This document shows positions 1,823-56,695 of a stretch of 64,000 bases of DNA, in pieces. Position numbers and translations under genes: made by a program. This DNA comes from a virus, in the IMG/VR virus record IMGVR_UViG_3300029117_000001, positions 3,829-67,828 of that record; one strand, written 5' to 3'. Under the pieces are notes generated by a model. That model had not been told where the DNA came from. It searched no databases and saw only the letters and a program-made list of their open reading frames with translations. Within the stretch, counting starts at the first letter, position 1. Each line of letters begins with the position of its first letter.

Positions 1823-2164
1823 ATGAGAATTGAAGATTTGAAGAGCTGGACAGTAGATCAGTTGAAAGAAGAGATTGTTCGTCTGGCTGATGAGAGAGAA
1901 TCAAAGCAACATGAGATTTTAGACAAGGATAATAAAATCAACGAGCTTCAGGCTGAACTGGATAAAATGTGCGCTTATAATAACGAGTTAAAAAGACAGG
2001 TGGACGAAAAGGCAGATGCACCATTTTACGACGAATCTGTAGAAATCGCAAAATATCACAGACAGCATCAGGACGATTGCATTACGATTAATCAGTTACA
2101 TACAACACTTGACGTTCTGATTGACCGATATGCGAATCTGAGAAAGATTCATGGGGTGAGTTGA
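1823..2164 (+). CDS. hypothetical coiled-coil protein
   Basis: RBS AGGGAG 7 nt upstream; heptad-like E/K/L-rich sequence. Confidence 0.45.
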   Translation: MRIEDLKSWTVDQLKEEIVRLADERESKQHEILDKDNKINELQAELDKMCAYNNELKRQVDEKADAPFYDESVEIAKYHRQHQDDCITINQLHTTLDVLIDRYANLRKIHGVS

Positions 2165-2168
2165 TGTT

Positions 2169-2450
2169 ATGGATAATCAAATTACTGTTAGCAAATTATT
2201 AAATATACTTGATGGCCTTTTACAGAGTGGCTTTGGAGATGCACCTGTGTTCTTAGGCGAAAATTATCCGCTGTTAGAAGATTCAATAAGCGTTAATCTG
2301 TGTGAAAACAAGCTACACATTAGGAATACATATTATGATGAAAAAATGGCAGAAGCAATGAGAAAAGCTATTAATGGTATGGAAGATGTACATAGAACAT
2401 ATATAGCAGATTGTTACAAAGCTGGAAGAGGAATAGACATAAAGGAGTGA
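2169..2450 (+). CDS. hypothetical protein
   Basis: ORF with RBS GGGGTGAG. Confidence 0.4.
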   Translation: MDNQITVSKLLNILDGLLQSGFGDAPVFLGENYPLLEDSISVNLCENKLHIRNTYYDEKMAEAMRKAINGMEDVHRTYIADCYKAGRGIDIKE

Positions 2451-25440: not shown

Positions 25441-25565
25441 ACCGTTAATTTTGGTAAAACCAACAGGCTAGACCGATCATCGAAAAGCGGAAATGCCTTG
25501 CCGCCTGCCTGTTGATTTACATACAGTTCAAGGCACTCTTTTATACGAAAGGCAGGTATCAATCT

Positions 25566-26783
25566 ATGGCAAGAAAACCACTTAGCAAGAAAATCAGATT
25601 TGAAGTATTCAAAAGAGACAAATTCACATGTCAATACTGTGGAAGAATGTCACCAGACGTAATTTTGGAAGTAGACCATATTGAGCCAGTAGCAGAGGGC
25701 GGGGATAATGAGATTACAAATTTAATTACTTCGTGCCGCGACTGCAATAGAGGGAAGGGCAAAACTAGAATTTTAGATTCCAAAGCAATATCGTTTCAAC
25801 AGGAAGCATTAAAAGATCTTGCAGAGAAAAAAGAACAGTTGGAAATGATTGCTGAATGGAAGAAAGAGCTACTTGATTATGATAATATGGCAGTAAACAT
25901 GCTAACGGAATATTTTGAACAATTGACAGGGTGTGATGTAAACGATAACGGACGTAAGGAAATAGGAATATGGTTAAAAAGATTTTCAGCAGATAAAATT
26001 ATGGAAGCAATGGAAAAATCTGTAAAATCATATTGTAAAGAATTTTCGTACGATGAAATTGTAATGGCATTTTCAAAAATACCAGGAGTGTGTATTAATC
26101 ACTCAAAGGGGGATAATAAGTCAAAGTATTATTTTAATTATATAAAAAAAGTTTTAACATCACGAGGAATAGAGTTCAATCCGAAACTTTTAAAATATTA
26201 TGTTGAAACATATTTGATTACAGAAGAAGATTTTGCAGCGGAAAAGAAAAGTAAACGGTATTTAAAAATATTTGTTTCATATCTACACCCCAGATTTGAT
26301 AAAGATAAATTTGCTCAAAACTATATGATGGATAAATGCTTTGTTGGGATCGCTGATATTGACGGAGAAAAGAGCATAGAAAATCTTAAATATGGGCTTG
26401 ATTTAGAAAACAAAGGTTATTTCTTTTCAGATAGATACTCTCCGAAAAATAGAGTTAGTTTGATTCCTTATCTCAATGGCTTTACAGAACTGTTAAGAGA
26501 ATATTATAGAGAATATTATCAAACATATAATGAGCCTCATCCTGTTTTAACTACCGAACAGGGATTAAGGCTTTTAAATCATTATGCGTCAAATAAATAT
26601 TGGGCGAACTGTGTTACAAAAGAAGACTATTGTAATATGTTTTCAATGCTTAAATTGAGTAAAGAATATGGTTGGAAGGAGCAAATGCCAGAAGCTATGT
26701 TTACAAGTGGTGGTACTATTTGTGACGAGAAAATTGCAGAATATGAAAGCGAGGAAAGAAAAAAGCATGATTTTCGACCTTAA
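25566..26783 (+). CDS. HNH endonuclease domain fused to a ~330-aa uncharacterised C-terminal domain
   Basis: N-terminus FEVFKRDKFTCQYCG ... EVDHIEPVAEGGDNEITNLITSCRDCNRGKG is a canonical HNH (H-N-H with a Cys4 zinc site); the remaining ~330 aa have no recognisable motif. Confidence 0.6.
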   Translation: MARKPLSKKIRFEVFKRDKFTCQYCGRMSPDVILEVDHIEPVAEGGDNEITNLITSCRDCNRGKGKTRILDSKAISFQQEALKDLAEKKEQLEMIAEWKKELLDYDNMAVNMLTEYFEQLTGCDVNDNGRKEIGIWLKRFSADKIMEAMEKSVKSYCKEFSYDEIVMAFSKIPGVCINHSKGDNKSKYYFNYIKKVLTSRGIEFNPKLLKYYVETYLITEEDFAAEKKSKRYLKIFVSYLHPRFDKDKFAQNYMMDKCFVGIADIDGEKSIENLKYGLDLENKGYFFSDRYSPKNRVSLIPYLNGFTELLREYYREYYQTYNEPHPVLTTEQGLRLLNHYASNKYWANCVTKEDYCNMFSMLKLSKEYGWKEQMPEAMFTSGGTICDEKIAEYESEERKKHDFRP

Positions 26784-27929: not shown

Positions 27930-27992
27930 TGCTTTCGGAATGCGTCCCAAAGTGGTACAATGTGGGTATCAAATATTGGGAGGTACGTATGT

Positions 27993-28919
27993 ATGAAGAA
28001 AGTAAAAAGAGTTATTGCTGCTGCAACCGTGATGGCGAGTTTGGTGACTGTGACACCTGTCATGGCGTTTAAGTGGGAAATCGGACAAAAGGAAGAAACT
28101 AAAGAAACAACACAAATAGAACCAGCAACAGAAGAAGAAACAGAAGCGGTATTTTCTGTATGCAAGGATTTGTGGGAAGACTTGGAATTGAAAACTTATA
28201 AAATGAGCCATTCAGAGATATTTGGAGATTCTGATGATTCTGCGGATACAGAAATCCACTACGAAGATGTAATCAAAAAAATATATTCAGAAAAAATTAA
28301 TGATTATCCAGACTTTTCAATGGGAGACAAGGTAAAAATAAATGGATATGTGTTACAGACCATAGAGCTTCCGACAGAACAAGAATGGCAAGCAAATAGT
28401 GTTAATAAGGCTGGCGCATATCGTGTTGAAATTTCAATTGATAATTCTATAACATATACAGGATATGATGAATTTGCAATGTTCGTAAGAAGCAATAACT
28501 CAAATGTATTAAAACTACAGGTGGGAGATTACGTTACTGTTGAGGGAATATTTTTAAAACCAGATTCAATTTCTGCGCAAGATTATATATATGATTGCAC
28601 TATCTCAAAATGCGAAGATACACCACAAGTACCGCTTGGAAAGAAAAATGCGCTGAAAGAAGCTATAGATTATTTAGATATAAATTCGTTTTCTTATAAT
28701 GGAATAATTCAGCAACTGAAATTTTCACAATATACAGATGAAGAAGCTAAATATGCAGCAGACTTTTGTGGAGCAAGTTGGAATAGACAAGCTGAAAAAT
28801 CTGCTAAAAGTTATTTGGATATTACAAGTTTTTCAAGAGATGGGCTGATTCAGCAATTGGAATTTGATGGATTTACTTCTGAACAGGCAGAGTATGGGGT
28901 CACTCAAGTAGGGTATTAA
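27993..28919 (+). CDS. secreted Ltp-repeat protein (superinfection-exclusion lipoprotein Ltp family of S. thermophilus phage TP-J34)
   Basis: Signal peptide MKKVKRVIAAATVMASLVTVTPVMA; two C-terminal repeats (AIDYLDINSFSYNGIIQQLKFSQYTDEEAKYAADF / SYLDITSFSRDGLIQQLEFDGFTSEQAEYGV) match the Ltp repeat signature. No lipobox Cys is present. Confidence 0.6.
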   Translation: MKKVKRVIAAATVMASLVTVTPVMAFKWEIGQKEETKETTQIEPATEEETEAVFSVCKDLWEDLELKTYKMSHSEIFGDSDDSADTEIHYEDVIKKIYSEKINDYPDFSMGDKVKINGYVLQTIELPTEQEWQANSVNKAGAYRVEISIDNSITYTGYDEFAMFVRSNNSNVLKLQVGDYVTVEGIFLKPDSISAQDYIYDCTISKCEDTPQVPLGKKNALKEAIDYLDINSFSYNGIIQQLKFSQYTDEEAKYAADFCGASWNRQAEKSAKSYLDITSFSRDGLIQQLEFDGFTSEQAEYGVTQVGY

Positions 28920-28926
28920 AATGATT

Positions 28927-28958
28927 AGGCTAGGGATTTCTCCCTAGCCTTTATTTTA
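28927..28958. terminator. bidirectional terminator between convergent genes
   Basis: Perfect AGGCTAGGGA/TCCCTAGCCT hairpin followed by TTATTTTAG. Confidence 0.55.
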
Positions 28959-29852
28959 GTTCATCCAATTATATGTGTAAGAATCATTAACATATACTTC
29001 AAATTTATCTGGCGTTATTGTATCGTAATTCCTATCATGAGGGAATCTAAATTCAAGATAAGCAGTTGAACCAGGATTTTCAACGTGAGCAAATTGATAA
29101 TCATATCCAACTATTCTTCCATCTTTGTAAAATACGACTGCAATAGTTGTGTAAGAGTTTCTTTTTCCATTATTAGTTACTTTTACCATAACATTTCCAG
29201 CTCCAAAATTAGCTGAATAGTGTATTCCGGAATTGTTCAAAATAAGGCTTGAAGAAGCCTTTTCAATTTTTAAATTAACTTTGAAAGAATCCCAGGTCTT
29301 GTCAGCGTTCCAACCTTGAAGCGCACATTTTGAATGTGGAGCAAAAGCGTATATACTATCAGAATCTGTTCCAATCATAGAACCATTCAAAAAATAAACA
29401 AACTCAACTCTAACACGTACTGCATAATCATAATGATTTTCAAGAATTGCCACCGCTCCATACGGTGTAGATTCTGCATGATATGTAACAATATTCTTCT
29501 TACCGCTACTGTTAGTGCTAGGATTTCCTCCAAAACCACCATTGCCGTTAGAAACCTTTTTCACGGTAACTTTACAAGTGTATTTCTTTTTGCCGACCTT
29601 TGCAGTAATCGTTGCGGATCCTTTTTTCTTAGCTTTTACTCGTCCTTTAGAAGATACCGTTGCAACAGACTTCTTGCTACTTGTCCATTTTACTTTTCTT
29701 TTTGTTCCAGTCACTTTTAATTGTAATGTTTGCCCGACTTTTAAAGTGGCTTTTTTCTTGTTGATTTTGCCAGCCGCCGATACTGGAACTGCCATACAGA
29801 CAATCAGTAACATTATGGTCAAAACTGCCAGTAACTTTTTGGATTTTTTCAT
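28956..29852 (-). CDS. secreted Big_2 (bacterial Ig-like group 2) domain protein
   Basis: Minus strand; RBS GGGAGGAAAACGC; signal peptide MKKSKKLLAVLTIMLLIVCMAVPVSA; KATLKVGQTLQLKVTGTKRKVKWTSSKKSVATVSSKGRVKAKKKGSATITAKVGKKKYTCKVTV is a Big_2 fold signature. Confidence 0.6.
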   Translation of the reverse strand: MKKSKKLLAVLTIMLLIVCMAVPVSAAGKINKKKATLKVGQTLQLKVTGTKRKVKWTSSKKSVATVSSKGRVKAKKKGSATITAKVGKKKYTCKVTVKKVSNGNGGFGGNPSTNSSGKKNIVTYHAESTPYGAVAILENHYDYAVRVRVEFVYFLNGSMIGTDSDSIYAFAPHSKCALQGWNADKTWDSFKVNLKIEKASSSLILNNSGIHYSANFGAGNVMVKVTNNGKRNSYTTIAVVFYKDGRIVGYDYQFAHVENPGSTAYLEFRFPHDRNYDTITPDKFEVYVNDSYTYNWMN

Positions 29853-29934
29853 ATGCGTTTTCCTCCCTAAATCAGTATGATATACATATTTTACCACTCC
29901 AAAATGAATAGTGGAATAGGAAATTTGAAAAAAA

Positions 29935-29962
29935 TAACGATTCATCAAAATGACGAATCGTC
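29935..29962. other. 11-bp-stem palindrome; terminator-like for minus-strand transcripts
   Basis: ACGATTCATCA-AAA-TGACGAATCGT (one mismatch); on the minus strand it is followed by a T-run. Confidence 0.35.
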
Positions 29963-30053
29963 AGTAAAAAAAACTGTCGTGAATTTCAAGACGGTTAATA
30001 GCTGTTCCACAAATTTATGGAGCTGTTTTTTCACAAAAAAATGAAAAATACTC

Positions 30054-30103
30054 TTGACATTGTACGTACAAACTGATATATTAAAGATGTACAAAATGTA
30101 CAC
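30054..30103 (+). promoter_or_regulatory. promoter with TGTACA-type operator repeats
   Basis: -35 TTGACA, palindrome TGTACGTACA in the spacer, -10 TATATT, then the direct repeats TGTACAAAATGTACA. Confidence 0.5.
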
Positions 30104-30125
30104 ACAATCTGAAAGGAGTGATAAA

Positions 30126-30302
30126 ATGTCTCCCAAAATGGGGCAAAAGTTGAAGGACAATCCTAGAAACGTAAGATTGGAAGTCAGACTTACACAGGAA
30201 GAAAATGCACTATTGGAAGAATGTGCAAAAAGACTTCAAGTCACAAAGACAAAAGTTATCACAAAGGGAATCGAATTAGTAGATAAAGATTCTCGCAACT
30301 GA
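30126..30302 (+). CDS. small ribbon-helix-helix-like regulator
   Basis: RBS AAAGGAGTGATAAAATG; 58 aa; NVRLEVRLTQEENALLEECAKRL fits an RHH (CopG/Arc-like) beta-alpha-alpha fold. Confidence 0.4.
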   Translation: MSPKMGQKLKDNPRNVRLEVRLTQEENALLEECAKRLQVTKTKVITKGIELVDKDSRN

Positions 30303-30426
30303 AAAACAGCCGTAGCACCGACCAAAGCACAAACGACTGTTTAAGCAACCAGAAGTCTCACATCTGGTAATCAATATCTTATCATTTGTGAGACTTCTTT
30401 TCAAGAGAAAAGGAGTATTTTTTTAT

Positions 30427-31188
30427 ATGAACGAAATCACAATTAACACAGCAAACCGGACACCTATCGAAATCGCACTTGGAATTGATGAAGAGGGCAT
30501 GACTACTGCCAGAAAGTTATATGCCTTTTTAGAATTGGATTCTAGCAATTATTCAAGATGGTGCAAGAGCAACATTACAGGAAATGAATTTGCAGAGGAA
30601 AACGTTGATTATTGGGCATTCGTCATTAATGACGAGACGCCGACAGGTGGTGTTATTCAGAGAGAAGATTACAAGCTTTCTGCCAGCTTTGCAAAGAAAC
30701 TTTCTATGCAGTCAAAGAGTGCCAAAGGTGAACAAGCCAGACAATATTTTCTCAAAGTAGAGGACAAATTAAAAGAAACAGTTCGCCACCCAGTACCAAT
30801 GACCATCCCCGAACAGATTCAGCTTCTAGCACAGGGAAACGTAGAACTGAATAAGCGGATTGACGATATTCAGACAGAGTTTGAGACTTTGAAAATGGAT
30901 TTGCCGATTCTCCCGATTGAAGCGGAGAAAATCACGGAAGCCGTAAAGAGAAAAGGAACGCTGGTACTTGGTGGCAAGGAATCCAATGCTTACAATAGCC
31001 GTTCCATTCGCCAGAAGGTTTACAGTAACATTCATTCCAATCTGCGCTACCAGTTCCAGGTCAAAAGCTACAAGGCAATTAAGAGAAGCCAGGTAGAACA
31101 GGCAGTCAAGATTATTGGAGAATACAAACCGCCAGTTTTCTTGAAGAATGAGATTGATACAGAAAATGCACAGCAGAGATTCTTTTAA
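30427..31188 (+). CDS. phage antirepressor (AntA-like N-terminal domain plus ORF6C C-terminal domain)
   Basis: RBS AAAGGAG; domain pattern typical of AntA/AntB antirepressors with a C-terminal ORF6C-type region. Confidence 0.55.
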   Translation: MNEITINTANRTPIEIALGIDEEGMTTARKLYAFLELDSSNYSRWCKSNITGNEFAEENVDYWAFVINDETPTGGVIQREDYKLSASFAKKLSMQSKSAKGEQARQYFLKVEDKLKETVRHPVPMTIPEQIQLLAQGNVELNKRIDDIQTEFETLKMDLPILPIEAEKITEAVKRKGTLVLGGKESNAYNSRSIRQKVYSNIHSNLRYQFQVKSYKAIKRSQVEQAVKIIGEYKPPVFLKNEIDTENAQQRFF

Positions 31189-31224
31189 TTAGATTTTTAC
31201 AGGGATACACAGGAGGAAAATAAA

Positions 31225-31476
31225 ATGACAGAAAATATGGATAGAGAAGACGCAATGTTCGAAGTAGAGGACACTATTGATAAAATCAAGTTTCTTTTGG
31301 ACGATTTCATGGAACAGTATGGATTTAATAGCACAGAAAAAATGGACGAACTGAAAAAATGGCAGTTTGCATATAACAAGCAATTTATGACAATGAAATT
31401 GTTGATTTTATGCGATTATGCCAATAAAGCAAGACAGAAATTTAAGGCTCTTGAATCTATGGAGCAGAAAGCGTGA
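31225..31476 (+). CDS. hypothetical protein
   Basis: RBS ACAGGAGGAAAATAAAATG. Confidence 0.4.
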   Translation: MTENMDREDAMFEVEDTIDKIKFLLDDFMEQYGFNSTEKMDELKKWQFAYNKQFMTMKLLILCDYANKARQKFKALESMEQKA

Positions 31477-31480
31477 TCGT

Positions 31481-31777
31481 ATGGCAAATAGAATCCAGTT
31501 CAATGACTTTCAGAAAAAGAGTGTGTACGCCAAGTGCAACGGAAAATGTGCGATATGCGGTAAGCCTGTCAAATTCAAGAAAATGACAATCGACCACATT
31601 ATGCCGTTGTCTCGTGGCGGCACAAATGATATTAAGAATCTGCAACTGGCGTGTAAGCGTTGCAACAGCATGAAGAGTAACATGACAATGGATGATATGA
31701 TGGGGCAGATTTCCGAGATTTTGAAGTATAACCGCAAACAGAAGTTGATTAGAGTGTTGGGAGGAATTATAGAATGA
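31481..31777 (+). CDS. HNH endonuclease
   Basis: CNGKCAICGKP ... DHIMPLSRGGTNDIKNLQLACKRCNSMK: HNH with a Cys4 site. Confidence 0.65.
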   Translation: MANRIQFNDFQKKSVYAKCNGKCAICGKPVKFKKMTIDHIMPLSRGGTNDIKNLQLACKRCNSMKSNMTMDDMMGQISEILKYNRKQKLIRVLGGIIE

Positions 31778-31786
31778 TACCATAGT

Positions 31787-31811
31787 ATACTGAATGATAC
31801 TTTCAACGTAT
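31787..31811 (+). promoter_or_regulatory. copy C of the 25-nt recurring motif, followed by an extended -10
   Basis: GATACCATAGTATACTGAATGATAC, then TGtTATAAT at about 31817-31825, then a hairpin plus T-run before the Rha gene. Confidence 0.4.
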
Positions 31812-31913
31812 GTTATAATATAAAATCATAATAAGCAAATTTTAAAGCGTTTACCTTTTGGGGTAGGCGCTTTTTTGTTGCCAAAAAATAAATCATAAAG
31901 GAGATATGAATTT

Positions 31914-32573
31914 ATGCTGGTAGAAATCGTTGGAAAAAGATACGAAGAGAAACTTATTACAACAAGTCTGAAAGTTGCAGAGGTTTTTGAGAAAGAACAT
32001 AAGAATGTTCTACAATCAATTGAAAATCTCGTGGCTGATAATTCAGCTGCCAAATTTTTTCAACTTACAACATATAAGAACCGTGGAAAAGAATATCCAA
32101 TGTACGAAATGGATAGAGATGGTTTTTCCTTGCTCGTAATGGGCTTTACTGGTGAAAAAGCCTTACAATGGAAAATTAAGTATATTGAAGCCTTCAACAA
32201 GATGGAAAGCGAGTTAAAACGCTTATATACAGAACGCCAGCAATGGCAAATTGAACGTGACAAGGGTGTTGTTATTCGGCATATCCTCACAGATACAATT
32301 AAGATGAAAATAACAGAAAGCCCAAATAAGAGATTTGCTTATCCAAATTATACAAATCTGATTTATCGCAATTTGTTCGGAAAGACAGCAAAAGAGCTTG
32401 AAAGTGATTATGGAGTAAAAGCAAAAGAGAATCTTAGAGATTTCTTCACAGGTGATGACTTGGCGAAAGTTCAGAGTATGGAAATGCTTGTAAGTAGCCT
32501 TATTAATTGCGGATGGGGATATCAGCAAATTAAAGAATTTATCCGAAGCGAAGCAACAAAAATGATTGCATGA
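31914..32573 (+). CDS. phage regulatory protein Rha
   Basis: N-terminus TTSLKVAEVFEKEHKNVLQSIENL is the Rha family signature; RBS AAAGGAGATATG. Confidence 0.7.
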   Translation: MLVEIVGKRYEEKLITTSLKVAEVFEKEHKNVLQSIENLVADNSAAKFFQLTTYKNRGKEYPMYEMDRDGFSLLVMGFTGEKALQWKIKYIEAFNKMESELKRLYTERQQWQIERDKGVVIRHILTDTIKMKITESPNKRFAYPNYTNLIYRNLFGKTAKELESDYGVKAKENLRDFFTGDDLAKVQSMEMLVSSLINCGWGYQQIKEFIRSEATKMIA

Positions 32574-38598: not shown

Positions 38599-38798
38599 TT
38601 ATGTGTTAGAGAGCTGCGGAAATTATAGCCTCCTTATCACGGTACAGCTATACTTGTGGTAAGGAGGTGATGTCATTATGACAGAGAATTTAATCATGGT
38701 AGGTATATTGTATAAAAAGTTTATGTTAAAGAGCATCCCATTTGGGGTGCTTTTTATTATGCACTTTTTTAACCTCAACAATGAAAGGAGAACATACA

Positions 38799-39604
38799 TG
38801 AATATCAATACCTCATTAATCAGCAACAACAACAGCTACGCCGGACAGACACCTCTGTATATTGTCATCCACAATACGGATAATACCGCCAAGACAGCAG
38901 ATGCCAAGGCACACGCCACCGCACAGCATAACGGCAATTTTCATGGCTATTCAGCCCACGTATTCGTTGATGATAAATCAGCATACCAAGCTTTGCCGTA
39001 TAATCGTGGAGCATGGCACGTTGGCGTAAATTACGGCAGTAAGCTTTTTGGAACTATAAACAATCACAACTCTATCGGGATTGAAATGTGCATGAATGCC
39101 GGTTACAACTACGAAAAGGCATTCCAAAATACAGTTGATGTATGTAAGAAGCTTATGAAAAAATACGGCATTCCGGCAAGCCGAGTTGTTCAGCACTACG
39201 ATGTTTGCGCTAAGAATTGTCCTTCCGTTATCCGTGGAAAGGGTGACTGGAATAGATTTAAGAAGCTTATTTCCAGTGAAACCGTGACAGTTCCAACCAC
39301 AAAGCCGACAGTAAAGATTGACAAGTATTACCGTGTCCGCAAGACCTGGAAGGATTCCAAGAGCCAGATCGGGGCGTACAAGTCACTCAAAAATGCAAAG
39401 AAAGCTTGCAAAGCCGGTTATTCTGTTTTTGATTGGAATGGAAAAGCTGTGTATTCCGTGACTGCAAAGAAAAGTGTAGCCAAGGTAGCAAAAGAGGTAA
39501 TTAACGGCGAGTGGGGGAACGGACAAGATAGACGAGACCGCCTGGAAGCTGCCGGCTACAACTACGCAGAAGTGCAGAAAAAAGTCAATGAATTACTGAA
39601 ATAA
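38799..39604 (+). CDS. endolysin: N-acetylmuramoyl-L-alanine amidase (Amidase_2/PGRP fold) with a C-terminal cell-wall-binding region
   Basis: PLYIVIHNTDNTA ... GYSAHVFVDD ... HYDVCAKNCP are amidase_2 zinc and catalytic motifs; C-terminal INGEWGNGQDRRDRLEAAGYNYAEVQKKVNELL is the lysin C-terminal motif. Strong RBS GAAAGGAG. An in-frame alternative start at 38678 adds a 40-aa hydrophobic extension. Confidence 0.8.
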
Positions 39605-39609
39605 TAATA

Positions 39610-39631
39610 CTCCCGGGGCTTTCCCCGGGAG
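39610..39631. terminator. bidirectional terminator hairpin between convergent genes
   Basis: CTCCCGGGG-cttt-CCCCGGGAG perfect stem. Confidence 0.5.
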
Positions 39632-40333
39632 TTACTTAAATGTCGTATATTCTTCAAATTCGTTTCTTATTTTTGCAAAGTCTTTTCTTCTGATAGGCAC
39701 AGTATTTCCAGAAAACATAAGGAACGAAGTGTTTATTTCTTTTACCTCGTCCATGTTTATTATGTAGCTCTGGTGACACCTCAAGAATCTGGAATCCAGT
39801 AATTCTTCAATATCGGATAGTTTACATCGTTCCGTATAAACTATACCGCAAGTGCAGTGGATAATGATGTATTTGTTTCGGCTCTCAATATATTCGATAT
39901 TTTGAAACTCCACCCGATGAATAAAGTCTTTTCCTTTTATCATAAGAGTGCTTTTGCTGATATGTTCCAGAGCATGATTGAAAGCACTATACATTCTGCC
40001 GTTTTCAGAACCTTTTATGATATAGTGTACCGGGAGTATATCAAGAGCTTCAAAAACATACTCTTTGTGGGCTGTCCAGAAAATAATATTTCCATTATAG
40101 CCATTTAATCTCAATTCCTTTGCGACTTCAATTCCATTTTCTTCTTTCAAAACGATATCCAAAACCACAATATCATACCACTCGCCATCTGCCACATCAT
40201 CAATAAGCGGCTGCCCTTTATCATACGGAGTAATCAATGCTTTTATATCACCATTTCGTTTGAGAAAATTATTAATCCGATGCATAAATATATCAATCTG
40301 GATTTCGCTATCATCACATATTGCAATTCTCAT
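39632..40333 (-). CDS. LytTR-family response regulator (receiver plus LytTR DNA-binding domain), orphan
   Basis: Receiver motifs MRIAICDDS and IVVLDIVL (acidic pocket) with K at the FWTAHKEY position; C-terminal LytTR domain (FIHRVEFQNIEYIESRNKYIIIHC ... LRCHQSYIINMDEV). No adjacent histidine kinase. Confidence 0.8.
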   Translation of the reverse strand: MRIAICDDSEIQIDIFMHRINNFLKRNGDIKALITPYDKGQPLIDDVADGEWYDIVVLDIVLKEENGIEVAKELRLNGYNGNIIFWTAHKEYVFEALDILPVHYIIKGSENGRMYSAFNHALEHISKSTLMIKGKDFIHRVEFQNIEYIESRNKYIIIHCTCGIVYTERCKLSDIEELLDSRFLRCHQSYIINMDEVKEINTSFLMFSGNTVPIRRKDFAKIRNEFEEYTTFK

Positions 40334-40356
40334 TCAAATCATCTCTTTTCACGTAA

Positions 40357-40386
40357 AATTCGCCACCAGAGGTGCTAATTTCGCCA
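40357..40386. promoter_or_regulatory. LytTR box: imperfect 9-bp direct repeats with a 12-bp spacer
   Basis: AATTCGCCA-ccagaggtgcta-ATTTCGCCA between the divergent response-regulator gene and gene 40464. Confidence 0.5.
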
Positions 40387-40463
40387 TTTCCTGTGTGATT
40401 GTATATTTTTTGATACAATGTTATTGTAATACATTAAGATGATAGTGTAAAGGGGGTGGATTC

Positions 40464-40820
40464 ATGGAGAAACATAAAAAAATCATAATTGTGTTTATAC
40501 TGATATTCGTGCAGGCGTTCTTGATTCAATACGTTTACTTCCGCCCGGAGCGTAGTATTATCTTTGGGAGGGGTAAAACTATCGCAATTGCAAAAGCAGA
40601 GGTAAAACAGGTTGTCCATGAGCGCTATAAATCCCTCGCTGACAAGCATCCAGCCCCTTTATTTCTATCTACATATATAACGAATGAAAAGTACCAAAAT
40701 CACAATATCTATACTGAAAAAATCATAATTTGCAATAATATCGAGGAAAAGCAACTTGCCAGAAAGGATTTAAGCGGAGATGATTCCATTCCAGTATATA
40801 GTTATGAAAACATGATATAA
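40464..40820 (+). CDS. small secreted/membrane-anchored protein
   Basis: RBS AAAGGGGGTGGATTCATG; N-terminal hydrophobic segment IIIVFILIFVQAFLIQYVYF. Confidence 0.45.
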   Translation: MEKHKKIIIVFILIFVQAFLIQYVYFRPERSIIFGRGKTIAIAKAEVKQVVHERYKSLADKHPAPLFLSTYITNEKYQNHNIYTEKIIICNNIEEKQLARKDLSGDDSIPVYSYENMI

Positions 40821-40971
40821 TTTAATAAGCAGGAACAAATGTTTGGAATATTGGGAGGGATTTACGTGGATTACAAGAAAGAAATTATTGAGATTATTGA
40901 AAAAATGCACAACATAACTTTTATTGCGATGATTCATGCGTTTGCGAAAAAATTATATCAAAAGGAAAAAG

Positions 40972-41006
40972 GGCAGGAGAGTTAATCTCCTGCCTCATTT
41001 TATTTT
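40972..41006. terminator. terminator
   Basis: GGCAGGAG-agttaat-CTCCTGCC followed by TCATTTTATTTT. Confidence 0.5.
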
Positions 41007-41350
41007 ACAAAACGTTCCATAAATTTCCAAAAAAGTTCTTTATCCTCTCTGGAAAGCTGATAATATTTCATTATTGCCTCTTTCGCTTTTATATCGTCAG
41101 TAGATATAGAAGCGCATATATTACTGAATTCTATATCTTCTTTTTTTTGCGGATCTCCTTCACCAGTACGAAGCCATTTTTCATCAACCCCATATTTTTG
41201 ACAAATAAGTGCGATTACTCCATCTGATGGAGTACGCCTGCCAGCTTCATAACTTGATACGTTAGAAAATGGTATTCCTAAATCATCCGAAAAATCCTTT
41301 TGAGTTTTAAAACCTAATATTTTTCGTAATTCTTTTAAACGTTCTTTCAA
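41000..41350 (-). CDS. XRE-family HTH transcriptional repressor (prophage repressor candidate)
   Basis: LKELRKILGFKTQKDFSDDLGIPFSNVSSYEAGRRTP is a canonical XRE/Cro-cI HTH; divergent from the early rightward promoter. Confidence 0.7.
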   Translation of the reverse strand: MKERLKELRKILGFKTQKDFSDDLGIPFSNVSSYEAGRRTPSDGVIALICQKYGVDEKWLRTGEGDPQKKEDIEFSNICASISTDDIKAKEAIMKYYQLSREDKELFWKFMERFVK

Positions 41351-44322: not shown

Positions 44323-44604
44323 ATGATTAAATTCGAAAACGGTTTAGTTAACATTTCTGGTAAAGGGATTGATATTCTTTCAGAGTATGCAGTTATTACC
44401 CATGAAATTAAAGAGATGTTCGTAAAGGATGGTGGAGAAGAGGAAGAAGTAAAAGAGCAGCTTAGACATTCGTTCGAGCATGGCCTTATGAACGAGGAAG
44501 AACTTGACAAGCGGTTTATTGAAGCTATGAAAGATCCTGGTTTAGTAGGAATGTTAATTGGAGCAGCTGGGCTTTCGTTATTATTCGGTCAGAAGGACAA
44601 GTAG
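44323..44604 (+). CDS. hypothetical protein whose 3' end abuts or overlaps the left end of the IS
   Basis: RBS AAGGAGGAAAAATAGCATG. Confidence 0.4.
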   Translation: MIKFENGLVNISGKGIDILSEYAVITHEIKEMFVKDGGEEEEVKEQLRHSFEHGLMNEEELDKRFIEAMKDPGLVGMLIGAAGLSLLFGQKDK

Positions 44605-44605
44605 A

Positions 44606-45760
44606 TTGCTGAAGAGTTTCAAGACAGAGATCGACCCTACCAAAGAGCAGAAGACCAAAATACATAAGACAATCGGCACATGCAGATATATTTATAATTT
44701 TTACCTGTTTCATAATAAAGAACGTTATGATGCCGGCAAAAGATTTATGAGTGGCAAGGCGTTCAGTGTATGGCTGAATAATGAGTATCTTCCGAATCAT
44801 CCAGAATATTCATGGATCAGAAAGGTCAGTTCCAAATCAGTAAAGAATGCGATCGAAAATGCATGCACAGCGTTTTTAAGATTTTTTCATCATCAGAGCG
44901 GTTTTCCAAGATATAAGAAAAAAGGAAGATCTGATGTGAAAATGTATTTTGTAAGGAATAATCCAAAAGACTGTTTTTGCGAAAGGCACAGGATCAAGAT
45001 TCCTACACTTGGATGGGTAAGGCTGAAAGAAAAAGGGTATCTCCCGACATCTAAGGATGGATATGTGATCCGAAGTGGAGCAGTTTCTATGAAAGCAGGA
45101 AGATATTATGTTTCTGCGCTTATCGAAGTACCAGCACCGGAAGTGGGTAAAAATTTCAGTGATGGGATCGGGATCGATCTGGGGATTAAGGATCTGGCTA
45201 TTGTGTCGAATGGAACTATATACAGAAATATCAATAAAACCGCACAGATCAGAAAACTTGAGAAACAATTAAGACGGGGACAGCGAAAGCTTTCCAGCAA
45301 ATCTGAAAATTTAAAGAAAGGAGAGTTCACTCAAAGAGCAAATATACGAAAACAAAAGCTCAAGGTACAGAAACTTTATCACCGGATGGAAAATATCCGT
45401 ACAGATCATATAAATAAGGCAATATCTGAGATTGTGAAAACCAAGCCGTCTCACATAACGATTGAGGATCTGAACGTATCCGGGATGATGAAGAACCGGA
45501 ATCTCTCAAAAGCAGTTGCGTCACAAAAATTCTATGAATTCCGGATGAAACTGAAAGCAAAATGTGCAGAATATGGAATCGAACTGAGGGTAGTTGATAG
45601 GTGGTATCCATCTTCAAAGATCTGTCATTGTTGTGGATGTATCAAAAAAGATCTGAAACTTTCGGACAGGATCTACAGATGTGTATGCGGTTATACTGAA
45701 GACAGAGATTTCAATGCAGCACTGAATCTGAGGGATGCTAAGACTTACGAAATTGCATGA
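44606..45760 (+). CDS. tnpB: TnpB (RuvC-like RNA-guided nuclease of IS200/IS605 family)
   Basis: LLKSFKTEIDPTKEQ N-terminus typical of TnpB; RuvC-I GIDLGIKDLA, RuvC-II ITIEDLNVSGM, zinc finger CHCCGC ... CVCGY, RuvC-III DRDFNAALN. TTG start at 44606 inferred; an in-frame ATG at 44558 is the alternative. Confidence 0.8.
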   Translation: MLKSFKTEIDPTKEQKTKIHKTIGTCRYIYNFYLFHNKERYDAGKRFMSGKAFSVWLNNEYLPNHPEYSWIRKVSSKSVKNAIENACTAFLRFFHHQSGFPRYKKKGRSDVKMYFVRNNPKDCFCERHRIKIPTLGWVRLKEKGYLPTSKDGYVIRSGAVSMKAGRYYVSALIEVPAPEVGKNFSDGIGIDLGIKDLAIVSNGTIYRNINKTAQIRKLEKQLRRGQRKLSSKSENLKKGEFTQRANIRKQKLKVQKLYHRMENIRTDHINKAISEIVKTKPSHITIEDLNVSGMMKNRNLSKAVASQKFYEFRMKLKAKCAEYGIELRVVDRWYPSSKICHCCGCIKKDLKLSDRIYRCVCGYTEDRDFNAALNLRDAKTYEIA

Positions 45761-53881: not shown

Positions 53882-54481
53882 ATGAATGAAATTTTAAAGA
53901 AAGCAAAAGAACGGGTTGAACTTTTAGAGAAGCAGGAGAAAAGTGGGAAAATCAAATTATCAGAGTTGAACCCTGGTGATGTATTCCAAACTACAGGTAA
54001 AAGAAAATACAAAGTGTTGGAACAGTATGAAAATACCACCAAGATAGTTTCTTTTGACCTTGTAAAAGAAAATGTAAAATTCGGGGATAATGCAGATTAT
54101 TTAGAGTCTGAATTAAAAGAACTTTGTGACACGGAAATTTTAGCGAATTTTGAAGAGGAATTTGGTGCGGAGAATATTGAAACACATGAAGCAGATCTTA
54201 TTACGGTCGACGGTCAGAATACAGGCGTTTCGGTGAAATGTAAAATCAGACCTCTTACATTTGATGAAGCAAGAAAATATACGGAATTAACTCCGAACAA
54301 AAAACTTAATGACTGGTATTGGACATGTACATCTTGGTCAACAAAAGAACGCGGATGGAGTAGCGTTGCCGTTGTTTCCTCCTCGGGTAGCGTCAGCTAC
54401 TTTAACCGCATCAGTGACATCGGTGTTCGCCCAGTTTGTATCTTAAAATCTAATCTCTTTGTATCTAAAGTGGAGGAATAA
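53882..54481 (+). CDS. DGR target protein 1 (DUF1566 / C-type-lectin-fold variable protein) carrying VR1
   Basis: C-terminus ...WYWTCTSWST ... SVAVVSSSGSVSYFNRISDIGVRPVCI; the DNA at 54368-54442 is homologous to the TR with differences mostly at TR adenines. Confidence 0.7.
   Translation: MNEILKKAKERVELLEKQEKSGKIKLSELNPGDVFQTTGKRKYKVLEQYENTTKIVSFDLVKENVKFGDNADYLESELKELCDTEILANFEEEFGAENIETHEADLITVDGQNTGVSVKCKIRPLTFDEARKYTELTPNKKLNDWYWTCTSWSTKERGWSSVAVVSSSGSVSYFNRISDIGVRPVCILKSNLFVSKVEE
54368..54442 (+). repeat. DGR variable repeat 1 (VR1)
   Basis: 75-bp homolog of the TR; about 9 differences, 8 of them at TR adenines and one T-to-C, plus a 3' IMH-like divergence. Confidence 0.7.
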
Positions 54482-54483
54482 AA

Positions 54484-55080
54484 ATGAAAAAAGATTTGAA
54501 ATATTTTGAGACAGAAATAAAAAGAATTACAGAGGAATTCGAGGATTACAAAAAGAAACACATGGGCACTCCGAAACCCGGGGAAGTGGTTGAAATTTCC
54601 GGTATGGAATGGATAATACTGGACAAGCTTCCGGATGGATATTTTGCAATTTTAAATAGTTTTTATGGTAAAACAAGAATGTTTGATTCAGATTCCAGCA
54701 ATTGGAAAGAAAGTTCTTTAAGAGAAGAATTAAACACATCATTTTTAGAAAAAATTAATACGCCTTTCGATGGAAATGCAGTTGTTGAATTTGACCGTAA
54801 CCTGTTGGCATTGGACGGGCAGACTGAATATGGAACTTGTAGAGATAAGATTTCACTCTTAACCGTGGATGAATACAGAAAATACAGGAAATATTTGCCA
54901 AATATGGATAAATGGTGGTGGCTTATTACACCATGGAGTACACCTTACAATGATTATTTTAAGAGCGTAGCCGTTGTTTCCTCCTCGGGTTACGTCGACT
55001 ACGGTAACTGCTACGATGTCTGCGGTGTTCGCCCAGTTTGTATCTTTTCCTCTTCAATCTTTGAATCAGACGAGGATTAA
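54484..55080 (+). CDS. DGR target protein 2 (DUF1566 / C-type-lectin-fold variable protein) carrying VR2
   Basis: Paralog of target 1; C-terminus KWWWLITPWST ... SVAVVSSSGYVDYGNCYDVCGVRPVCIF; VR2 at 54970-55044. Confidence 0.75.
   Translation: MKKDLKYFETEIKRITEEFEDYKKKHMGTPKPGEVVEISGMEWIILDKLPDGYFAILNSFYGKTRMFDSDSSNWKESSLREELNTSFLEKINTPFDGNAVVEFDRNLLALDGQTEYGTCRDKISLLTVDEYRKYRKYLPNMDKWWWLITPWSTPYNDYFKSVAVVSSSGYVDYGNCYDVCGVRPVCIFSSSIFESDED
54970..55044 (+). repeat. DGR variable repeat 2 (VR2)
   Basis: Every VR2/TR difference in the body of the repeat (about 11) maps to a TR adenine (A to T or G); the 3'-terminal CAACCTG/CAGTTTG difference looks like IMH versus IMH*. Confidence 0.8.
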
Positions 55081-55082
55081 TA

Positions 55083-55454
55083 ATGGCAAATGAAGATTTA
55101 CAGGTGATAATAAAAGCCAAGCAGTTAGCAAAGCACACGCTTATAGTAACCAGTAACGCGAGGAGATATCCTAAGAAATTCAGATTTTCTTTAGTTGATA
55201 AAATGAAGAACAAATCGCTCGAAATACACGCTAAGCTCTTTGAAGCCAATCGAACAAATTTGAAAGATTATAAGAGAGAAAGGCTAGAATTACAGACAAA
55301 AGCAATTACATATTGTGATGAACTTCTCTTTTATATAGAGCTTTCATACGAGCTTAATATCATTAATTCGGGAAGTATGGAGACATGGTCGAAAATGGTT
55401 ACAGATATTAAGCATATGGCGATTGCTTGGAGAACAAAAGACAGAAACAGATGA
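55083..55454 (+). CDS. avd: DGR accessory variability determinant (Avd-like small basic helical protein)
   Basis: 123 aa, basic, predicted helical; located between the VR gene and the TR exactly as in Bordetella phage BPP-1 (mtd-avd-TR-brt). Confidence 0.6.
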   Translation: MANEDLQVIIKAKQLAKHTLIVTSNARRYPKKFRFSLVDKMKNKSLEIHAKLFEANRTNLKDYKRERLELQTKAITYCDELLFYIELSYELNIINSGSMETWSKMVTDIKHMAIAWRTKDRNR

Positions 55455-55478
55455 TTTTTATAGGTTATGCGTTGTAGA

Positions 55479-55553
55479 GCCGTTGTTTCCTCCTCGGGTA
55501 ACGTCAACAACAATAACTGCAACAATGACAACGGTGTTCGCCCAACCTGTATC
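55479..55553 (+). repeat. DGR template repeat (TR)
   Basis: Adenine-rich (AACGTCAACAACAATAACTGCAACAATGACAAC) non-coding copy of the VRs, 24 nt after avd and 95 nt before the RT gene. Confidence 0.8.
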
Positions 55554-55648
55554 ACAGGCAGACAGAGTAAGCAGAAAGCTGAAATCCGAATAGATACAAG
55601 CAAATGCATAACCTTTCCGCAATGGATAAATATAAAGGAACAAAATAA

Positions 55649-56695
55649 ATGGATAAAGAAATTGTGGCAAATTTTGAAAACTTGTATTCATCTTACAAAC
55701 GAGTTAAGGCAGATAAGAAATTCAATTCCGGCACTGCCAGGTTTTCTATTATGGCGTTGGAAGGAATCCAAACATTGAAGGAACAATTGGAAAATCAAAC
55801 GTATTCCATAGCACCGTATAATAAATTCAAAATATATGAGCCGAAAGAACGCATCATAGAATCGTGTTCTTTCAAAGACAAGACGGTACAGAGATGCTTT
55901 TCAGACTACATTCTTACGCCGAAATTAAATAATATTTTTATAAAATGGAACACAGCAGGACAAATCGGAAAAGGTCATTATATGGCAATGGATGGTCTGC
56001 GAGATCATATGTTGGAATTTTACAGTAAAAATGGTTTAAATGGCTGGATTGTAAAATGCGATATTCGTAAATATTTTTACAGCATAGATCATGAAATCAT
56101 GAAAGACGTGGTGGATTACTATTTTGATGATGAATTTACAGTATGGTTAAATCATCTATTTATTGACAGCGCCGAAAATCCAGGACTTCCACTTGGAAAT
56201 CAAGTTAATCAGAAATACGCTTTACTGTTACTGCATTCGTTGGATCAAATGATAACAATTGAATACGGAATACAGCATTACGGAAGGTATAATGATGATT
56301 TCTATGTGATTTGTAAAAGTAAAGAAGAAGCCAGAGAAATACTTGAAGCTATCCGGATTATGACCGAAAGCCTTAAAATACAATTGAATACTAAATCACA
56401 GATTGTGCCATTTAGAATGGGATTGTGCTATCTTGGCTTTCACCATTATGTAACCTCCGATGGGAAATATATTAGAAAACTTCGAGGAGATAAAAAAAGA
56501 AAAACACACAGGAAGATTCGAAATTGGATTAGAGCTGTGAATAATGGCGAAATGACAGAAGAAAAATTTCAAGAAAAATATAATGCGTGTAAAAACAATA
56601 TGCTGCATGGGAATTGTATTAAATTATGCCACAGCATGGATTTGGATGTTAAGAAAAGAATGAAAAGAGGTGATGAAAAATGTTCATGCGAGTAG
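55649..56695 (+). CDS. DGR reverse transcriptase
   Basis: Motif-by-motif parallel to BPP-1 bRT: FKIYEPKERIIESCSFKDKTVQRC (compare FLVYEPKPRLISALEFKDRLVQHA), KCDIRKYFYSIDHE (KSDFSKFFPSIDRA), GLPLGNQVNQ (GIPIGSLTSQ, the DGR-specific replacement of QGxxxSP), RYNDDFYV (RYMDDIVV, YxDD), MGLCYLGFHHY (RGINFLGYRIW). Confidence 0.85.
   Translation: MDKEIVANFENLYSSYKRVKADKKFNSGTARFSIMALEGIQTLKEQLENQTYSIAPYNKFKIYEPKERIIESCSFKDKTVQRCFSDYILTPKLNNIFIKWNTAGQIGKGHYMAMDGLRDHMLEFYSKNGLNGWIVKCDIRKYFYSIDHEIMKDVVDYYFDDEFTVWLNHLFIDSAENPGLPLGNQVNQKYALLLLHSLDQMITIEYGIQHYGRYNDDFYVICKSKEEAREILEAIRIMTESLKIQLNTKSQIVPFRMGLCYLGFHHYVTSDGKYIRKLRGDKKRKTHRKIRNWIRAVNNGEMTEEKFQEKYNACKNNMLHGNCIKLCHSMDLDVKKRMKRGDEKCSCE

Follow-up and report, generated by a model that had tools for sequence, protein, structure and literature searches.

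An orphan LytTR response regulator and a putative agr-type promoter beside the repressor gene of a temperate gut phage

What is a response regulator for, in a phage that has no histidine kinase? We asked this of a 64,000-nucleotide stretch of IMG/VR virus record IMGVR_UViG_3300029117_000001 (positions 3,829 to 67,828 of the record), which we will call the window and number from 1. An earlier note, made from the letters alone, had pointed to a receiver-plus-LytTR regulator on the minus strand that faces a small gene at 40464 across a 130-bp intergenic region with direct repeats, and it suggested that the phage listens to a host quorum-sensing kinase. We propose that the module is the sensory input of a temperate Blautia phage: a kinase-less AgrA-like regulator together with its own agr-type promoter. 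We put the probability of this integrated model at roughly 0.55. Its cis-regulatory level is well supported, while we infer the input from a kinase and the action of a small open reading frame (ORF) downstream.

The regulator and its repeat box

39609-39632, strandless: G+C-rich hairpin terminator between the convergent endolysin and regulator genes (terminator scan)
39632-40333, minus strand: response regulator of 233 amino acids, receiver plus LytTR domain (Pfam)
40357-40365, plus strand: distal half-site AATTCGCCA of the LytTR-type box
40378-40386, plus strand: proximal half-site ATTTCGCCA, 21 bp from the distal half-site
40411-40419, plus strand: extended -10 element TGATACAAT of the promoter of gene 40464 and the small ORF; start predicted near 40426
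40451-40423, minus strand: sigma-70-type promoter of the regulator, with TTTACA at 40451-40446, 17 nt, and TACAAT at 40428-40423

The domain content given in the earlier note holds. The N-terminal receiver matches Response_reg (1.3e-10) and the C-terminal domain matches LytTR (PF04397, 6.4e-18, residues 138-224); the solved LytTR domain 3d6w matches at 1.7e-6. In alignments, the receiver signature residues D7, D8, D59, T87, and K107 are all canonical. The protein is a REC-LytTR (receiver plus LytTR) response regulator of the AgrA/ComE/LytR/AlgR type. It also has a full-length match to phrog_8810, a PHROG of unassigned function (3.6e-40). Its gene is monocistronic, with the hairpin terminator on one side (a 10-bp stem with 8 G-C pairs, and a T-run on the minus strand) and the divergent region on the other.

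No kinase accompanies the regulator. As the earlier note had it, there is none in the window: Pfam found no histidine kinase, AgrB (PF04647), AgrD-like gene, or Hpt among the 37 window ORFs of at least 116 amino acids, and a local hidden Markov model (HMM) of AgrC found no AgrC-type (HATPase_c_5) membrane kinase in six-frame translations of the window. (This HMM has no proper positive control outside its training set, and the absence of a kinase rests chiefly on the Pfam scans.) The note held that the regulator would not be an orphan if a kinase or AgrBD lay just outside the window. The roughly 20 kb that the window is missing are covered by two loci of one sibling contig, and there neither the AgrC HMM (six frames) nor Pfam (larger ORFs) found a kinase, AgrB, or AgrD. 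Pfam hits among the larger ORFs of these 20 kb are a serine recombinase, a replisome organiser, DUF4317, GIY-YIG, and a Tad2-like protein. Nor does a kinase adjoin the regulator in any of more than 250 loci. The regulator is an orphan at the level of the whole genome, and both the orphan state and the position in the lysogeny module are common to all clades of related phages (described below). Its nearest chromosomal homologs (32-35% identity) are kinase-paired, either with a PAS-HisKA-HATPase-REC hybrid plus Hpt or with an AgrC-like HATPase_c_5 kinase.

The half-sites AATTCGCCA and ATTTCGCCA lie in the 130-bp intergenic region (40334-40463), with a 12-bp spacer and a 21-bp period, just where the earlier note had them. 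It called them a canonical LytTR box, which is right for the 9-12-9 geometry but not for the sequence of the half-sites, which is off the AgrA/ComE/PlnC consensus. Per window, chance would give 0.01 exact TTCGCCA pairs (1 of 100 shuffles), and under a two-site model, the box is the only match in the window that scores at least 17/18 (null 0-0.35). We also considered an a-priori null, namely any G+C-containing 9-mer pair with at least 8/9 matches at period 21 within 130 bp. Such a pair arises in 0.4% of shuffles and in 2.2% of real 130-bp tiles of the window. With a probability of 0.4-2% for such a pair in 130 bp, the repeat taken alone is suggestive; our case rests on the comparison across relatives, which, at the level of sequence, makes the operator solid.

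The box in related phages and in chromosomal agr loci

We sorted about 250 related loci into three clades by the identity of their regulator to the window's. Clade A is 96-100% identical (plus a mosaic form at 78%); clade B is 62-64% identical and comprises Blautia obeum prophages of about 45 kb; and clade C is 43-50% identical and comprises phages of about 78 kb. (The first 80 viral loci were too alike, at 96-100%, to be informative, and divergent clades were fetched.) Within clade A, the box is invariant and its flanks vary. Clade A variant L072 reads TGGCAAAAT-N12-TGGCGAAAT, and the sibling L389 has a perfect ATTTCGCCA pair. The offset of the box from the start codon, -52 to -57, is equal in clades A and C. 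Between these clades both half-sites change in concert: TGGCGAAAT/TGGCGAATT in clade A versus TGTCAAAAT/TGACAAAAT in clade C, with regulators that are 43-50% identical. In the clade C box, TGTCAAAAT-N12-TGACAAAAT, 21 bp is the sole recurrent period. Concerted change of the half-sites is the behaviour one would expect of a dimer-binding site that co-evolves with its protein. This comparison of clades supports the earlier note's view that the repeats are probably a LytTR-type operator facing gene 40464.

The residues that may read the box can be followed as well. In a published structure of AgrA with DNA, H169, N201, and R233 reportedly contact bases; the AgrA sequence we used, which we take to be correct, has the expected residues at positions 59, 169, 201, and 233. 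At the three contact columns, the regulators have I/Q/R in clades A and B, and C/Q/K in clade C with its different box.

One regulator (P0014/L081), 78% identical to the window's, is a mosaic whose receiver is 89% identical and whose LytTR domain is 64% identical, which implies recombination inside the regulator gene. The intergenic region next to it, box included, is unchanged.

Clade C has a moron cassette of two genes, with a bidirectional terminator, between the regulator and the operon that the box would drive. An unbiased scan for paired half-sites across all clade C loci gave two recurrent classes, and every other class had at most 4 members. The first class is the regulator-adjacent box (82 loci). 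The second is TTTTTGCAG-N12-ATTTTGCAC, then 28 nt, then TGCTATAAT; 47 loci have it just ahead of the detached operon, in most of them about 1.4 kb from the regulator. Even when the regulator gene is no longer linked to it, the operon retains a LytTR-type promoter in the style of its own clade. (Another candidate for a second box upstream of the operon, TTTTTTACA...GTTTTTACC in L090 with a period of about 20 bp, is too degenerate to count.)

We also noticed that in clade C (for instance, at about 3750-3950 of L196) the regulator-adjacent box and its extended -10 face an ORF-less stretch of about 170 nt that ends at the bidirectional terminator. This stretch has the conserved blocks GGTTTCTG...GGGAGGATGTGTG...GCCTG-N9-CAGGC, has no match in Rfam, and contains no conserved small ORFs. 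It could be a small RNA or a promoter-interference element.

The sequence TGnTAnnAT, an extended -10 element, is found 26-28 nt after every variant of the box, on the strand opposite the regulator, in all phage clades. It reads TGATACAAT in the window, TGCTATAAT in L072, and TGGTATTAT, TGATAGTAT, or TGATACAAT in clade C; in clade B, TGTTATAGT follows a single half-site (read from the sequence). In the window, TGATACAAT lies 27 nt past the box, counted from the box to the hexamer, and the -35 position is poor (CTGTGT). A poor -35 is usual for activator-dependent LytTR promoters. The -10-like TGTATAT of the earlier note is present, at 40400-40406, but the conserved element is TGATACAAT instead. 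On the other strand, the sigma-70 promoter of the regulator has 10/12 matches in a promoter scan, with its start predicted near 40416, and equivalents of the form TTTACA-17-TAnAnT precede the box in clades B and C (by eye). The promoters stand back to back, with overlapping predicted starts at about 40426 (rightward) and about 40416 (leftward).

The box occupies about -69 to -40 of the predicted rightward promoter and also about +30 to +59 of the regulator's predicted transcript, where it ends 23 nt short of the start codon. (The proximal half-site is at about -48 to -40 of the former and about +30 to +38 of the latter.) The earlier note had overlooked that the box also lies within the regulator's own 5' leader. 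Because the box is downstream of the regulator's sigma-70 promoter, it is not an upstream activating site for the regulator gene.

The region 40398-40428 holds three copies of ATTGTA/TACAAT, which form the overlapping palindromes ATTGTAT-N8-ATACAAT and TACAAT-GTT-ATTGTA. These two palindromes coincide with the -10 elements of the back-to-back promoters, and a covarying inverted repeat occurs at the same place in clade C. We considered ATTGTAT-N8-ATACAAT, which is unique in the window, as an operator shared with the immunity switch, and rejected it: the switch region has TTGTACAA-type motifs, the arms of the palindrome fall on the -10 hexamers, and we claim no link to the switch.

Where else does such a box occur? 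We scanned 185,579 species genomes for TGGCGAAWT-N12-TGGCGAAWT and found at least 120 loci, which is near what chance would give (about 70 by our own estimate); most are chance matches, in unrelated phyla. Five loci have a REC-LytTR regulator within about 2 kb of the box. We discounted one of these (L269) as chance; its box is within repetitive sequence. In L291 and L346, from metagenome-assembled genomes (MAGs) of Lachnospiraceae, and in L325, from Eubacteriales, an operon of a regulator and a HATPase_c_5 membrane kinase is followed directly by a box that is aimed into the next gene. The box of L337 separates an AgrB-regulator-kinase operon from a divergent unit, which has TATAAT 28 nt past the box, a ribosome-binding site (RBS), and a 50-amino-acid ORF containing ANVTCPVITYQPKV. 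This ORF (MQKKTIRDHVNKAVKGIAMKTASHYANVTCPVITYQPKVSDAIKQLRKHS, about 2060-2210, minus strand) is presumably an AgrD-like propeptide, going by the clostridial AgrD sequences that we know, and a VWA/lipase secreted protein comes after it. (The L337 contig is labelled Muribaculum, looks Firmicutes-like, and may be misbinned.) Divergent orthologs of the L291 regulator gave further cases. In L379/L380 (69% identity), ATTTCGCCA-N12-ATTTCGCCG is followed after 28 nt by TGATATATT, before a SUKH-like gene, and in L381 (55% identity), the box is followed after 27 nt by TGATATTAT, before agrB. As a control, we asked how often a -10 hexamer with TG just upstream lies 26-29 nt past the box: this was so in 4/4 agr-adjacent loci versus 3/107 loci from other taxa.

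Because the agr-adjacent chromosomal loci have the same box, the same spacing, and the same extended -10, the phage promoter looks indistinguishable from a conserved class of Lachnospiraceae agr-type promoters. These loci define an agr-type operator for Lachnospiraceae: ATTTCGCCA-N12-ATTTCGCCR, 27-28 nt, and TGnTAnnAT. The literature that we searched has no description of a ATTTCGCCA-type agr operator. At the contact columns, the box-sharing chromosomal regulators mostly have I/Q/R as well (V/Q/R in L346, I/K/K in L337), and their LytTR domains are 20-26% identical to those of the phages. Among the IMG/VR matches to the host-type box, just the one beside this regulator has a promoter-like context; the nine others are in seemingly repetitive or coding sequence. 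The earlier note's "agr-like piece" is apt in that the same box and spacing drive agrB and an AgrD-like ORF, but the phage has no AgrB, AgrD, or AgrC.

DUF6273 proteins (one of them TIR-fused) are encoded directly upstream of box-using regulator-kinase pairs (L291 27-1568; L379/L380 2995-3999). DUF6273 is also the domain of the targets of the phage's retroelement (see below), a coincidence that we cannot explain.

The operon facing the regulator and its neighbours

38678-39604, plus strand: endolysin, convergent with the regulator gene
40464-40820, plus strand: 118-amino-acid protein with an N-terminal signal-anchor helix, first gene of the putatively box-driven operon
40853-40859, plus strand: RBS of the small ORF, GGGAGGG, kept 6-8 nt ahead of the start codon in all variants
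40866-40985, plus strand: small ORF of 39 amino acids (32-43 elsewhere), with the homologous start GTG at 40866
40971-40995, both strands: bidirectional terminator that ends the operon and the convergent repressor gene (terminator scan)
41000-41350, minus strand: CI-like repressor, an XRE helix-turn-helix with a short helical C-terminus, co-oriented with the regulator

The terminator scan found no terminator between gene 40464 and the small ORF. Since there is no intervening terminator and there is one at 40971-40995, the 118-amino-acid protein and the small ORF form one transcription unit.

The 118-amino-acid protein has no match in Pfam, PHROG, or PADLOC, and PADLOC gave no defence-system match for the regulator or the small ORF either. 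AlphaFold2 models it with a mean predicted local distance difference test score (pLDDT) of 51, and only a helix at residues 2-26 is confident, with no fold to be recognised beyond it. Judged by eye, the corresponding proteins of clades B and C, of 144 and 108 amino acids, either have just the anchor MEKxxxxIxVxILIF in common with it or are unrelated. So the first gene of the operon appears to be non-homologous between clades beyond the N-terminal anchor.

The small ORF is better conserved at its start. The earlier note had a 41-amino-acid ORF after gene 40464; a conserved ORF does exist there, but its homologous start is the GTG at 40866, which gives 39 amino acids (the ATG at 40839 would give 48). 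The N-terminus MDYKKEIIEMI is invariant, while the C-terminal half is a mosaic of about 12 types. In the first 12 codons, the numbers of variable sites at codon positions 1, 2, and 3 are 3, 1, and 11. The ORF is annotated as a gene in independent assemblies. By this pattern of substitution, the small ORF is a real gene under purifying selection. The earlier note had offered a secreted effector as one possible output of the module, and this we would revise: the conserved output is the small ORF of about 39 amino acids, which is allele-matched to the repressor.

This matching is one-to-one. Each type of small ORF goes with one type of CI-like repressor, in about 12 allele pairs, and the same pairs occur with the regulators of clades B and C. 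From this pairing it follows that the left boundary of an exchangeable immunity cassette runs through the small ORF. The repressor matches Pfam HTH_19, HTH_3, and Phage_CI_repr as well as PHROG repressor families, and it has no peptidase domain. The repressors of the related loci are short (about 101-156 amino acids as extracted, with uncertain starts). Because they are short and the window's has no peptidase domain, we would expect a non-proteolytic mode of repressor inactivation. We considered mimicry of the SinI/SinR type and rejected it: hhalign of the small-ORF profile against a profile of the repressor C-terminus gave a probability of 8%, and there is no SinI match in Pfam.

The window is most of a temperate, siphovirus-like phage of about 80 kb from the human gut, with nearly all genes on the plus strand. 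Along that strand the order is portal, capsid, a 1599-amino-acid ORF (probably the tape measure, judged on size and position alone), a 1541-amino-acid tail fibre, an amidase endolysin, and early genes. The regulator region is the junction of the late genes with the immunity region: after the endolysin come the regulator (minus), the 130-bp intergenic region, the 118-amino-acid ORF (plus), the small ORF (plus), the bidirectional terminator, and the CI-like repressor (minus). Beyond the repressor are rightward early genes, including Rha, Bro-N/KilAC antirepressor-like proteins, and TnpB. The order at this junction is identical in independent assemblies.

Relatives of the regulator are common in viral sequences: they occur in 168 + 260 + 85 viral contig stretches, over 500 in IMG/VR, and the variant of Blautia obeum is on more than 800 contigs. 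A search of GenBank phages with the locus gave just two weak, unannotated matches. The family of the 118-amino-acid protein is found in these phages alone; one member is annotated in an isolate of Blautia faecis. In Blautia obeum prophages, a 63%-identical regulator lies at the prophage end, adjoining the integrase and host genes. Given the B. faecis member and the B. obeum prophages, the hosts are therefore Blautia or close relatives.

Other parts of the phage have features of their own. A complete diversity-generating retroelement spans 53882-56695 of the window, with a reverse transcriptase (RVT_1) at 55649-56695, an adenine-rich template repeat at about 55479-55553, and variable repeats at 54368-54442 and 54970-55044. 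The variable repeats are the 3' ends of tandem DUF6273 genes; they and the template are mutually 81-84% identical, and the differences are mainly at template adenines (by eye). An accessory island within the tail-gene block (27960-32573) encodes an Ltp-type surface lipoprotein (a superinfection-exclusion family), a minus-strand Big_2 protein, an AntA/ORF6C antirepressor-like protein, and a Rha regulator. There is an HNH endonuclease at 25512-26783, and amid the early genes is a TnpB/IS605 OrfB gene (Cas12f-like TNB domain) at 44558-45760. A single tRNA-Cys is called, at 448-516, and its ACA anticodon is unusual. In some siblings, though not in the window, a tyrosine integrase gene lies between those of the tail fibre and the endolysin. 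Outside the window, the sibling genome encodes a large serine recombinase (L402 18269-20038) and a Tad2-like (Thoeris anti-defence 2) domain protein (L484 7983-8564).

A proposed mechanism, its rivals, and known systems

We propose that the regulator is made from its constitutive sigma-70 promoter in the lysogeny module, and that a host histidine kinase phosphorylates it at D59. The dimer would then bind both 9-bp half-sites, at 40357-40386. From its position at about -69 to -40, it would activate the divergent extended -10 promoter, and thus the synthesis of the 118-amino-acid protein and the 39-amino-acid small ORF. The same binding event would throttle the regulator's own synthesis, which we expect from the site of the box, about +30 to +59 in the regulator's transcript, and from the overlap of the back-to-back promoters. 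The small ORF would act on the adjacent CI-like repressor and so make the lysis-lysogeny switch responsive to a signal of the host, either of cell density or of the envelope. Its target is most likely the repressor because its variable half is allele-matched to the repressor. The earlier note had also raised a lysis-lysogeny link, which is plausible because the module always adjoins a CI-like repressor.

We are not equally sure of these steps. On the evidence of the motifs, the regulator very likely binds the box, and it probably activates the rightward promoter. Input from a host kinase we consider somewhat more likely than not, and negative autoregulation we regard as an even bet. Since the regulator has the same DNA specificity as regulators under the control of AgrC-like peptide sensors, such a sensor would be the likeliest kinase, but this particular kinase is a tentative choice. 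More tentative still is an action of the small ORF on the repressor, with the effect in either direction.

Several observations weigh against our model. The rightward promoter, with its extended -10, could be active even in the absence of an activator. No ORF follows the regulator-adjacent promoter in clade C, and clade B has only one clear half-site, AAATGGCGAAAA, in the proximal position. The receiver is just 21-26% identical to those of the box-sharing chromosomal regulators. The nearest homologs occur in a hybrid-kinase/Hpt relay as well as beside an AgrC-like kinase. The chromosomal loci with the identical box are from Lachnospiraceae or Eubacteriales MAGs, not shown as Blautia, and a homolog search with the chromosomal AgrA-like regulator returned no Blautia-annotated member. 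Two distant homologs, P0045 and P0089, have glutamate in place of the phospho-acceptor aspartate; these may be constitutively active, and phosphorylation may not be universal. As to the small ORF, it has no homolog of known function and its profile comparison with the repressor C-termini was negative (8%). Also, the allele coupling could be mere adjacency, with stop codons that are just 14 bp apart.

We also considered other roles for the regulator and its box. A host AgrA-like regulator might be the true activator, with the phage regulator as a competitor, decoy, or damper on the box, or as a sink that titrates the host kinase. The phage box does not differ in sequence or geometry from the boxes of chromosomal agr-type promoters, a host regulator with I/Q/R should recognise it, and the phage receiver is highly divergent from host receivers. 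We consider this quite unlikely: in phages, the box occurs only with the phage regulator; in clade C, the box and the contact residues change together; and the receiver retains all of its catalytic residues, for which a decoy that acts only at the DNA level would have no use. Nor do we favour the idea that the repeats are a self-operator only, that the true targets are host genes with agr-type boxes, through which the phage would reprogram the quorum sensing of its host, and that the rightward operon is constitutive. It would account for a box downstream of the regulator's sigma-70 promoter in all clades and for clade C's keeping the regulator-adjacent box without a facing ORF, the extended -10 does look activator-independent, and a specificity shared with chromosomal agr promoters would open host targets to the regulator. 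But the orientation of the box and the 26-28 nt to the opposite-strand -10 are kept as in activated chromosomal promoters, and the detached operon of clade C has its own box, which makes this very unlikely. That the direct repeat is a product of chance in an AT-rich intergenic region could be argued from the fact that 2.2% of 130-bp window tiles have a 9-mer pair with at least 8/9 matches at period 21. The comparative data effectively refute it, through the conservation of the box, its concerted change, its fixed geometry, the second copy in clade C, and its identity with chromosomal agr-type boxes.

Two further alternatives concern the signal and the output. The regulator might work unphosphorylated and without any host kinase, as a constitutive transcription factor, so that the output depends on nothing but its amount. 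No kinase was found anywhere in the phage genome, and the two distant homologs with a phosphomimetic-like glutamate at the acceptor position would fit. One paper describes constitutively expressed ComE as activating promoters without its kinase (PMC12323615). Yet D7, D8, D59, T87, and K107 are kept in 8 sampled clade A/B/C sequences despite 43-65% overall divergence, which speaks for selection on phosphotransfer, and we find this alternative improbable. Or the module might be a cassette for lysogenic conversion or superinfection exclusion, with the membrane protein as the effector, the small ORF as an accessory, and no role in lysis-lysogeny. The anchored protein of the first gene is at the classical position of exclusion genes, between the lysis/integrase genes and the repressor, and moron genes gather here (Big_2, an 82-amino-acid membrane protein, and a 266-amino-acid secreted protein). 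However, the membrane protein appears to be non-homologous between clades apart from its anchor (by eye), whereas the small ORF has an invariant N-terminus and a C-terminus that tracks the repressor allele. With no PADLOC or PHROG match either, we judge this to be unlikely.

How does our model compare with known systems? The closest are the agr loci of Lachnospiraceae and Eubacteriales described above (L291, L325, L337, L346, L379, and L381), with the shared ATTTCGCCA, the 12-bp spacer, 27-28 nt to the extended -10, and I/Q/R at the AgrA base-contact positions. The differences are that, in place of agrBD, the genes under the phage promoter are those of a membrane protein and a small ORF, next to a repressor, and that the LytTR domains are just 20-26% identical. 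The module would work like the output stage of agr, but because AgrB, AgrD, and AgrC are absent, it is not an agr system. AgrA of S. aureus is itself a REC-LytTR protein that uses 9-bp direct repeats 12 bp apart, a weak -35, and the divergent promoters P2 and P3. The phage has the same kind of regulator, the 9-12-9 repeats, the weak -35, and a divergent promoter pair; unlike in S. aureus, its half-site is off the AgrA consensus, one box serves two overlapping promoters, and there is no kinase in cis. Furthermore, with the box downstream of the regulator's promoter, negative instead of positive autoregulation would be expected.

VqmAPhi shares the DNA specificity of the host's quorum-sensing regulator, and by its box and contact residues, the phage regulator seems to do so as well. 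VqmAPhi and Qtip of vibriophage VP882 belong to the transcription factor-small ORF (TF-smORF) modules, which resemble ours in having a transcription factor beside a cI-like repressor and a divergent small ORF without homologs. In those modules, the transcription factor activates the divergent small ORF, which inactivates cI (Silpe et al., Nature 2023, PMC10432266). They are one-component and Gram-negative, mostly from linear plasmid-like phages, whereas we have a two-component regulator from Firmicutes that needs a kinase in trans and a membrane protein before the small ORF. Here the comparison draws on the layout and the cis elements, with the action of the small ORF on the repressor suggested by the allele coupling.

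The temperate C. difficile phage phiCDHM1 has agrB, agrD, and agrC without agrA (PMC4124054, PMC7790227). The phage of the window is its exact complement, with only an AgrA-like regulator and an AgrA-type promoter. RgaR, an orphan LytTR regulator of C. difficile with a critical G at -51/-72, drives agrB1D1 and a small RNA (PMC10602386). RgaR and VirR (C. difficile and C. perfringens) resemble our regulator as orphan REC-LytTR proteins with a kinase elsewhere and repeats 21 bp apart, but RgaR is chromosomal and has VirR-type boxes of another sequence, while ours is phage-borne and tied to an immunity region. The LytTR regulatory systems HdrRM and BrsRM have a receiver-less regulator that is co-transcribed with a membrane inhibitor (PMC6193735). 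Our module is not of this type: its regulator has a full receiver, and the genes of the regulator and the membrane protein are divergent. LytTR homologs of Pseudomonas phages are listed in reviews. The literature that we searched has no functional or comparative account of phage REC-LytTR regulators, their operator, or a link to a small ORF.

In many phages of gut Firmicutes, the repressor is short and lacks a RecA-cleavable domain, and to our knowledge, the triggers of prophage induction in the gut are largely unknown. The module offers an SOS-independent input, in which a host two-component or quorum-sensing signal would be read by a response regulator of the phage. It would extend the logic of a transcription factor plus a small ORF from one-component, Gram-negative, plasmid-like phages to two-component signalling in Firmicutes. 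With its compact cis element, defined promoter, and 39-amino-acid candidate effector, it is easily tested. In a bolder version, which we think somewhat unlikely, a widespread group of Blautia phages of the human gut captured only the output stage of agr, the regulator mimics the DNA specificity of AgrA-like regulators of the host, an AgrC-like kinase phosphorylates it in trans, and the 39-amino-acid protein is an antirepressor matched to the phage's non-cleavable repressor, for an induction that is independent of SOS. If true, host peptide quorum sensing would trigger prophage induction without SOS; through the shared specificity, the phage regulator could drive agr-controlled genes of the host, and the host's regulator could drive the phage promoter; and the module would be the first two-component, Gram-positive counterpart of VqmAPhi-Qtip.

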